Assembly: GCA_964458565.1 (NCBI GenBank)
Contig: CAYWJO010000011.1
Coordinates: 1 to 64,000, forward strand
Direction: 5' to 3'
From: an uncultured archaeon
GTDB taxonomy: Archaea; Asgardarchaeota; Thorarchaeia; Thorarchaeales; Thorarchaeaceae
DNA length: 64,000 nt
The notes below the pieces were generated by a model that was given only the letters and a program-made list of their open reading frames with translations, had not been told where the DNA came from and did no database searches. Made by a program: the position numbers and the translations under genes. Below, piece after piece: positions 2,095 through 62,102 of this stretch; positions within the stretch are counted from its first letter, which is position 1; every line of letters starts with the position of its first letter.

Positions 2095-2201
2095 TGGTGG
2101 GCCCGGCGAGATTTGAACTCACGACCGTTCCCCTGTATGGAGGAAATCTCCAAACATACAGGTTATGAGCCTGCTGCTCTACCAAGCTGAGCTACGGGCC
2201 C
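2095..2201 (-). tRNA. tRNA with CAU anticodon, most likely tRNA-Ile2, carrying a 30-nt insertion (2128-2157)
   Basis: Acceptor stem GGGCCCG/CGGGCCC-A-CCA, D arm GCTC/GAGC, anticodon arm GCAGG-CTCATAA-CCTGT, T arm GTGAG-TTCAAAT-CTCGC; the GGGCCC acceptor is typical of archaeal Ile tRNAs. Confidence 0.85.
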
Positions 2202-61018: not shown

Positions 61019-61894
61019 TTATCGAACTCTAATACGTTTCACCTTCTTCTTGGTCTTCTCTCTAATCCCCTTCTCAGTATTATCATAGTGTATAATAGCA
61101 GTAACCATATAGTCATCTGAGCTGTCTGTTGATGCCAATTCTATATAGATTTCCGAATGCAAGGGCTCAACACTCAACGATGCGGGTAGGAATCCGACTA
61201 CCACCGTCCGATCTTCTGGTGTCCACCCATAAGGTGACACACCAACTATATCCAGACCCTCTCCGGTTGAGAGTTTTACTTCCACATTCTGATATGGATG
61301 GATGTAATTATTGATTATTACCATCTTCAAATTAATGCGTCCATTTTTCCGGACAACAGCTTTAGCACTCATATCGATATCCGGAGGTCTAAACGTTCCT
61401 TTCAGACTCTTTCTTCCTCTTCTAGATGTCTTTCGAACTATAGATTTTCCTTCAGGAAGATGGTCTTTTCCACCATAAGGTCCTTCATTTAACCGATCGG
61501 GATTCTCAGCCCACTTAATGAGTGTTCTGAAGCCACTTAGTTTGACAACATTCACTCGCCCCTTAGTTGAGGTTTGTTTTTCCTGCTCATTTCTTATGGC
61601 CTCTATTACTCCTCCTCTAATGGCATCTTTGGTAACATTCTCGAACTCAATCATTTCTCTGAAGGTCTGAGTCCAGCCATCAATAAATTCAACAATCTCT
61701 CGTGCTGCTGGTAATCTCTTTTGATTATCAGCAAACCACATTTTCCTTGTCACTTTTGCATAGTGAGGTGGTGCAAATGCAGAACAAGCTCTTTGCCATT
61801 CTATCAGATCACAGATTTTGAGAGCAGGTGCTATTTGAGAAGAAACAATCCTTTTCTGAGATTTATCCAATTCATCTCTCTTTCTTTCAGACAT
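61019..61894 (-). CDS. Hypothetical protein (helical N-terminus, basic linker, beta-sandwich C-terminus)
   Basis: 291-aa ORF with GAGGGGG SD. Confidence 0.75.
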   Translation of the reverse strand: MSERKRDELDKSQKRIVSSQIAPALKICDLIEWQRACSAFAPPHYAKVTRKMWFADNQKRLPAAREIVEFIDGWTQTFREMIEFENVTKDAIRGGVIEAIRNEQEKQTSTKGRVNVVKLSGFRTLIKWAENPDRLNEGPYGGKDHLPEGKSIVRKTSRRGRKSLKGTFRPPDIDMSAKAVVRKNGRINLKMVIINNYIHPYQNVEVKLSTGEGLDIVGVSPYGWTPEDRTVVVGFLPASLSVEPLHSEIYIELASTDSSDDYMVTAIIHYDNTEKGIREKTKKKVKRIRVR

Positions 61895-61912
61895 AAATAC
61901 CCCCTCTCAGAG

Positions 61913-62036
61913 CAGATAAGGTGCCGCCCCCCTTCAGAAAAACCAAAGGGGGACGAGTATAATGACTATCGTCTTCTAGTACGAACCAGAAGACTTCATG
62001 CCCTTCTGATAGAGTGAATTAACTCCGCCCTATCTA
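61913..62036 (-). ncRNA. Candidate structured leader RNA (riboswitch-like)
   Basis: Closing stem plus three internal hairpins; G-U pairs favour the minus strand; TATA-like box ~25 nt upstream. Confidence 0.5.
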
Positions 62037-62102
62037 TAACTAAGTTACTCTCAAATACATATAAGCACCTTCTTGGTTGTAGGTGACTAACAAACACTTG
62101 AT

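Follow-up and report, generated by a model that had tools for sequence, protein, structure and literature searches.

A structured 5′ leader RNA, predicted to gate a ribosome-binding site, upstream of an uncharacterized gene in Thorarchaeota

The TPP riboswitch of Escherichia coli thiM (RF00059) is what we take to be a translational platform that works with an anti-Shine-Dalgarno (anti-SD) and an anti-anti-SD sequence, and the leaders of E. coli ompA and Lactobacillus slpA are presumably structured 5′ UTRs that stabilize a transcript or set its level of expression. We compared both kinds of leader with an RNA element on the minus strand of a 64,000 nt stretch of DNA from an uncultured archaeon of the Thorarchaeaceae (assembly GCA_964458565.1, contig CAYWJO010000011.1, positions 1 to 64,000; hereafter the window), which precedes a gene for a 291 aa protein of no known family. 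As in thiM, a tract beside the ribosome-binding site has a choice of two partners, the SD sequence itself and an upstream strand whose pairing with it would close a domain of several helices, and in the present leader these two pairings are mutually exclusive. Unlike thiM, the leader matches neither the TPP class (RF00059) nor any other class and has no known ligand; its host is an archaeon, it occurs in two genomes, and its closed state is predicted to be a minor one. With the ompA and slpA leaders it shares a stable hairpin at the very 5′ end and further hairpins ahead of the SD, but whereas we take those leaders to lack a conserved SD-masking alternative, both homologues described here keep one, together with a conserved single-stranded block. 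The element is a real, selected and previously uncatalogued structured SD-gating 5′ leader of very narrow distribution, and in our model it probably controls access to the ribosome-binding site. We place the probability of the reading as a whole, that of a selected, folded cis-regulatory leader that is possibly a two-state translational switch, at roughly 0.55.

The element sits in the gap of about 208 nt that separates a full-length DUF2095 gene (62441-62103, with TAG as its stop) from the 291 aa gene (61894-61019, with its ATG at 61894). A radical-SAM gene (63973-62552) lies upstream of this pair and a DUF6884-like gene (60995-60276) comes next after it, all on the minus strand. The pairing of the DUF2095 gene with the 291 aa gene is kept in 20 loci of the family, and the corresponding intergenic gaps on two metagenome contigs, P0002 of JGI 3300042731 and P0017 of ENA ERZ23498359, 3668 and 1165 nt long, measure 207 and 174 nt. 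The stretch is present in salt-marsh metagenomes; the DNA runs examined contained the same strain alone, with zero variants within the leader element, and no RNA runs with this stretch are listed among the public runs. Elsewhere in the window, Rfam returned a 104 nt tRNA match (2098-2201, minus strand, 60.4 bits) that is absent from the ARAGORN output and is probably an intron-containing tRNA gene.

The structural model of the 291 aa protein (pLDDT 84.8) has a helical N-domain (residues 1-136), followed by a basic disordered linker and a C-terminal beta-sandwich (about residues 170-291). No Pfam family matched the protein above cut-off, the sub-threshold match being Coatamer_beta_C (E 0.071). 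Foldseek lists the gamma-adaptin ear and the GGA/gamma-COP (COPI) appendage domains, and the top rows from the ESM Atlas are eukaryotic coatomer-beta (whole beta-COP) clusters, with TM values by query of 0.46-0.50 over 184-196 residues. Because integrin, macroglobulin and many other sandwiches rank as high or higher in VIA-align, this likeness is not distinctive, and a coatomer- or adaptin-like identity was set aside as weak. As modelled, the features of the protein point to no ligand.

A promoter, GAAGGTGCTTATATG (62058..62072), composed of a BRE-like stretch and a TATA box, lies at the upstream edge of the element; the TATA box reads TTATAT at 62064-62059, as the original prediction had it. 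The sequence GGTGCTTATAT occurs once in the 3.7 Mb genome, and the motif GAAGGTGCTTATAT is found upstream of the orthologous gene at three loci of another genus (L004, L006 and L010) and also at L043, the homologous locus described below. The variant TAGGTGCTTATAT occurs at L024, and a related box stands 51-164 nt ahead of the start codon in at least 14 loci; the orthologous genes all have long leaders, which vary in sequence. As the motif is both unique in the genome and common to the orthologous loci, we regard it as the 291 aa gene's own promoter. Archaeal transcripts start at a fairly constant distance from the TATA box, and on this basis transcription would begin near A62035, an A that follows a T about 24 nt past the box, giving a leader of about 140 nt. 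A spacer of 25 nt here and of 24 nt in L043, different in sequence, separates the box from the conserved block ATAGGGCGG. An A/T-rich stretch between two of the hairpins described below, P3 and P4 (TTATAC at 61962-61957; TTTTATC in L043), may serve as another TATA box, in which case the mRNA would start inside P4. Between the structure and the SD or ATG there is no promoter motif of comparable kind, no gene and no long T-run. The original prediction had offered a novel cis-regulatory RNA or ncRNA; the position of the element between a conserved TATA promoter and the SD and ATG of the gene makes it a 5′ leader and not a gene of its own, so that an uncatalogued leader before an uncharacterized gene stands and the separate-gene reading is disfavoured.

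All of the sequence features from which the structure had been proposed are in place in the window. The minus strand from 62065 to 61890 folds at -63.4 kcal/mol (z -4.67), which 0 of 200 shuffles equalled, against -36.6 kcal/mol (z -2.19) for the plus strand, in agreement with the claim that G-U pairs limit the fold to the minus strand. The element itself folds at -54.3 kcal/mol, a value reached by 0 of 7405 random 136 nt windows of the same genome (mean -26.4, sd 6.1 kcal/mol). Taken together, the z value, the shuffles, the strand contrast and the genome background indicate a genuine structure, one that stands out in this genome and is specific to the strand encoding the 291 aa gene.

The proposed fold consisted of a closing stem around three hairpins. 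In the closing stem, P1, a first G-tract that resembles an SD, UAGAUAGGG (62036-62028), is complementary to CCUUAUCUG (61921-61913). Within it lie P2, a weak 4 bp helix of GAGU (62025-62022) with ACUC (62015-62012); P3, a 9 bp hairpin of GUCUUCUGG (61994-61986) with CUAGAAGAC (61979-61971) and the loop UUCGUA; and P4, a 13 bp hairpin (61955-61943 with 61937-61925, including an extra C-G pair) with a C-rich 5′ arm, a G-rich 3′ arm that holds the third G-tract, and the loop UUUUU (61942-61938). Only P3 and P4 are robust among these, each with a pair probability of about 1. P1 is seen in the centroid of an isolated 124 nt piece and has a probability of about 0 in the full leader, where it is displaced by a 5′ hairpin, hairpin A (62008..62034, GAUAGGG-C-GGA(GUUAA)UUC-A-CUCUAUC), with a pair probability of 1.0. 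Hairpin A, which lies inside a conserved block, takes up the 5′ strand of P1 and also P2, which survives within it. For the 136 nt piece, the claimed four-helix structure comes to -47.2 kcal/mol against a minimum of -54.3. Imposing P1 carries a penalty of 6.7 kcal/mol here and of 5.7 kcal/mol in L043. The closing stem is able to form in both sequences but is disfavoured, as hairpin A wins, and our model treats the four-way junction that P1 would close as an alternative state.

Between hairpin A and P3 lies an unpaired block, GAAGGGCAUG (61997..62006), which contains the second G-tract and an upstream AUG; the RNAalifold consensus pairs its AGGG with CUCU. Beyond P4, the pyrimidine tract ACCUUAUCUG (61913..61922) forms the 3′ strand of P1 and is the predicted anti-SD, and the SD itself, AGGGGGU (61905-61899), constitutes the fourth G-tract, 5 nt ahead of the ATG. 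The upstream AUG opens a 7-codon frame into P3 (MKSSGSY, 61976-61999, minus strand), and in L043 this AUG is kept and opens a frame of 3 codons; because the G-rich box is just 1 nt away, its use by ribosomes is doubtful. A 9 nt near-repeat, UC(A/U)GAAGGG, at 61930-61938 and 62001-62009 makes the second G-tract a copy of the start of the 3′ arm of P4, and hints that the leader may have grown through local duplication of an SD-like segment.

The AUGAA and GAUA that flank P3 had been read as a tandem G-A-like loop. A K-turn requires a three-nucleotide bulge, tandem sheared G-A pairs and a Watson-Crick stem, all conserved, and the flank does not fit this consensus: AUGAA...GAUA has an A left unpaired and lacks a complementary C-stem, and in L043 it is lost, the flank there reading AUGGA...GUUU without the 3′ GA. 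A K-turn/L7Ae motif was accordingly rejected. The same flank was compared with the eukaryote-like SECIS (eSECIS) elements of Asgard archaea, where a stem of 7-15 bp stands on the core [A/G]UGA_[G/A]A and the host gene has an in-frame UGA (Sec) codon and carries the element in its 3′ UTR (PMC11227280). P3 loosely resembles these in having AUGA on its 5′ side and GA on its 3′ side, and its 9 bp upper stem falls inside the published range of 7-15 bp (PMC11227280). Unlike an eSECIS, P3 has an extra A between core and stem, its loop has no unpaired A run, its 3′ GA is replaced by GU in L043, and it belongs to a 5′ leader whose neighbouring genes have no in-frame UGA. With the core lost in the homologue, DUF2095 ending in TAG and the 291 codons open without UGA, a SECIS element was dismissed.

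One homologous leader was found, at L043:1900-2028, in a Thorarchaeota MAG (NCBI assembly GCA_016840225.1) that was reached through a protein search for closer relatives; its DUF2095 protein is 68% identical to that of the window, and the N-terminus of its downstream protein 58% identical. A covariance model built from the present sequence alone scores the L043 leader at 30.8 bits (E 1e-6). In the model-fitted alignment, 98.5% of the pair cells are standard pairs, ten pairs are changed on both sides (three in P1, two in P3 and five in P4), and a further seven show a one-sided change that keeps the pairing; 0 of 500 shuffles matched this degree of pairing, and slid controls fell to about 50% paired. 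P3 of L043 is an 8 bp hairpin in the same place, with two two-sided and two one-sided changes, and its P4 is a 14 bp hairpin with five pairs changed on both sides and three on one, all still paired. Covariation in orthologues, the check that the original prediction had named, is thus seen as compensatory changes in P3 and P4; as only two sequences carry the element, it rests on one pairwise comparison in a structure-fitted alignment, and two sequences are too few for a statistical test of the R-scape type. Indels in the loops put the P3 and P4 columns out of register in a plain MAFFT alignment, from which the pairing is therefore unreadable.

Because the fitted alignment leans toward the model, L043 was also folded alone, and again produced the 5′ hairpin, P3 and P4, together with a small hairpin in which the SD is masked (z -3.1); its equivalent of hairpin A is AGGG-C-GGAG(UCAA)CUCC-CUCU. 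The hairpin A block, ATAGGGCGGAGT.AA.TC.CTCT as DNA and ATAGGGCGGAGU.AA.UC.CUCU as RNA, is identical to L043 at 20 of 23 positions, and GAAGGGCAUG at 10 of 10. Strong divergence is seen in the helices, in the linker between P3 and P4, in the 25 nt spacer that follows the TATA box and in the DNA ahead of the promoter. Judged from these two sequences, unpaired blocks that stay near-identical while helices and spacers diverge are the pattern expected of a functional RNA.

Searches for further copies came back empty. Neither BLAST nor the single-sequence covariance model detected the element among 85 genomes of the family and 22 orthologous loci, and a two-sequence covariance model found no copy in the 22 loci or in 86 other representative genomes of the class (the 85 of the family and one further of the class), so the RNA family is very narrow. 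The loci L044 and L045 are without the element, metagenome scans revealed no closer locus, and viral contigs scanned with P3 gave no match. The leaders of the nearest outgroup loci, L034 and L035, are different and weakly structured (z -1.05 and -1.82), which, together with the absence from 86 genomes, suggests that the element is young and dispensable for the gene family. The loci with the closest DUF2095 genes (79% identity; L040:1839-1945 and L041:881-990) are missing the 291 aa and DUF6884 genes, and DUF2095 is followed directly by a convergent ATPase B gene; they keep a promoter-like box and the first ~60 nt of an L034-type leader, and from this arrangement it looks as if a two-gene cassette has been deleted.

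How the leader might affect translation is suggested by its complementary tracts. Each homologue has four G-tracts, namely AUAGGG at the 5′ terminus, GAAGGGC, the G-rich 3′ arm of P4 and the SD, as well as three pyrimidine tracts, namely CUCU, the C-rich 5′ arm of P4 and, just ahead of the SD, ACCUU (UCCAC in L043). The ensemble predictions have CUCU holding the 5′ G-tract and the SD pairing mainly with the last pyrimidine tract, at a probability of 0.3-0.55 here and, through the equivalent UCCACU, of 0.31-0.38 in L043. G-rich boxes occupy the corresponding place in the orthologues, the genome-wide consensus upstream of genes is GGAGGTGA, and across the whole genome the box GGAGG/AGGTGA is enriched at -15 to -9 upstream of long ORFs; from these sequences, canonical SD-led initiation appears to be in wide use in this archaeon. 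By the rules of base-pairing, AGGGGGU should be able to pair with ACCUCCU; the assembly contains no 16S gene. Its sole 5S rRNA candidate (G000:C55:19270-19352, listed as L001) is short, at 83 nt, and scores 32 against the Rfam cut-off of 38 bits.

The masking of the SD had originally been assigned to the CCCCCU arm of P4. This assignment did not hold: P4 has a probability of about 1 in both sequences, and the partner of the SD is instead the 3′ strand of P1. As P4 is the most stable helix in both homologues, a switch operated by its CCCCCU arm is less likely. For the upstream helix that was to capture the P4 arm, UCAGAAGG/UUUUCUGA, the complementarity does exist, with a weaker equivalent in L043 (GAAGG/CUUUC), but because the most stable helix would have to open, we give it little weight. 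In silico, mutually exclusive pairings gate the SD in both homologues, and forcing P1 frees the SD.

Our model, in which two-state control of translation is the most likely mechanism, has the logic of an anti-SD/anti-anti-SD platform. The mRNA of the 291 aa gene would be transcribed from the GAAGGTGCTTATAT promoter with an untranslated leader of ~140 nt, comprising the conserved 5′-terminal hairpin, the long hairpins P3 and P4, and the pyrimidine tract by the ribosome-binding site, and this leader would act in cis, its likeliest target being the initiation of translation, with an effect on mRNA stability as a further possibility. By default, the SD would be masked by the pyrimidine tract ACCUUAUCU and the 5′ G-tract tied up in hairpin A. 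With P1 formed instead, the 5′ G-tract would take the pyrimidine tract, CUCU would move to the second G-tract, and the SD would be freed. Candidate triggers for a shift of the balance are temperature, the kinetics of co-transcriptional folding, a protein or a small molecule. P1 is unpopulated in the equilibrium ensemble of the full leader, and the dual complementarity of the 5′ G-tract may be a by-product, because this tract resembles an SD.

The permanence of the folded parts would also suit a leader that does not switch at all, in which the 5′-terminal and long hairpins protect the mRNA from 5′ exonucleases or fix the level of translation. P3 and P4 are always folded, the presumed 5′ terminus is capped by a stable hairpin of probability 1, the alternative fold is unfavourable, and the orthologous genes all have long and varied leaders. 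We nevertheless consider constitutive action unlikely, as it leaves unexplained both the near-perfect conservation of the unpaired GAAGGGCAUG and the presence, in both homologues, of an SD-masking tract that is able to pair with the 5′ end.

Distinctly more doubtful is a true riboswitch native to Asgard archaea, whose four-helix aptamer, closed by the 5′ end of the mRNA and the anti-SD tract, would bind a small molecule that stabilizes P1, frees the ribosome-binding site and so switches on translation of the 291 aa protein. Conserved unpaired blocks beside covarying helices are compatible with an aptamer, as is the double role of the 3′ strand of P1 as anti-SD in both homologues, and the gap of 6-7 kcal/mol between the two states is within the range that a ligand could supply. 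Rfam 15 has no match in the region at the gathering threshold and, at E up to 10, a sole match that lies outside the element on the other strand, in keeping with the original prediction, in which the element was not recognized as TPP, FMN, fluoride, 5S, SRP or tRNA; the lack of any known family again agrees with a new class. Against this, no ligand can be inferred, the controlled gene having no known family or pathway, and P1 is disfavoured. Riboswitches are associated with a coherent metabolic or transport function, whereas here we see a single gene family with no Pfam match above cut-off. The element is confined to two known genomes, unlike most riboswitch classes, with none in the 86 other representatives of the class, and two sequences preclude R-scape-type statistics. 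On present evidence, the riboswitch label is unwarranted.

It is very improbable that the element is a free-standing small RNA gene, driven by a promoter of its own, which the 291 aa gene merely follows. In favour are the TATA box ~25 nt ahead of the first helix, ends that can pair through P1, as in many stable RNAs, and the U5 run in the loop of P4. However, genera without the element conserve this promoter ahead of the downstream gene, no second promoter-like motif of that kind precedes the ATG, and the SD comes 8 nt after P1 here and 4 nt after it in L043. No match to 5S, SRP or RNase P was found at the element, a tRNA identity was rejected by tRNA search, and reading the sequence revealed no boxes of C/D or H/ACA guide RNAs. 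The U5 run is in the P4 loop here (61938-61942, minus strand) and in the P3 loop in L043 (L043:1951-1955), that is, not at the same place. Oligo-U runs are able to stop archaeal RNA polymerase, and early termination within the leader at U5 is conceivable; the position of the run differs between the two sequences, and attenuation at this site was discarded because it is not conserved.

The least probable account, a DNA-level operator at the start site with hairpins that are incidental palindromes or the remains of an insertion, draws on the overlap of the most conserved block, with its dyad symmetry ATAGgG..CtCTAT, with the inferred start, and on an absence from most relatives such as an insertion would show, but helix G-U pairs are mismatches in DNA, the other strand folds much worse, the two-sided changes that P3 and P4 pairing survives are needless for an operator, and the element occurs once and has no terminal repeat family. 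A MITE, for which several genomic copies, terminal inverted repeats and target duplications are expected, was likewise rejected: by BLAST and the covariance model the element is present once, which also answers the original question of a repeat, and no flanking duplication abuts the stem. A relic of a TnpB omega-RNA was discarded on finding no match longer than 18 nt elsewhere in the genome, and an RNA G-quadruplex from the four G-tracts on account of loops of 20-50 nt and of tracts that are paired in the predicted folds.

Overall, the value of the leader is limited by its very narrow distribution and by the uncharacterized function of the gene it would regulate. It nonetheless provides a testable example, with a promoter conserved across genera, a 140 nt leader with two covarying long helices and two conserved single-stranded blocks, and a ribosome-binding site that has a conserved masking partner. 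If the two-state model is true, control by SD sequestration in the bacterial style would be at work in an Asgard archaeon.
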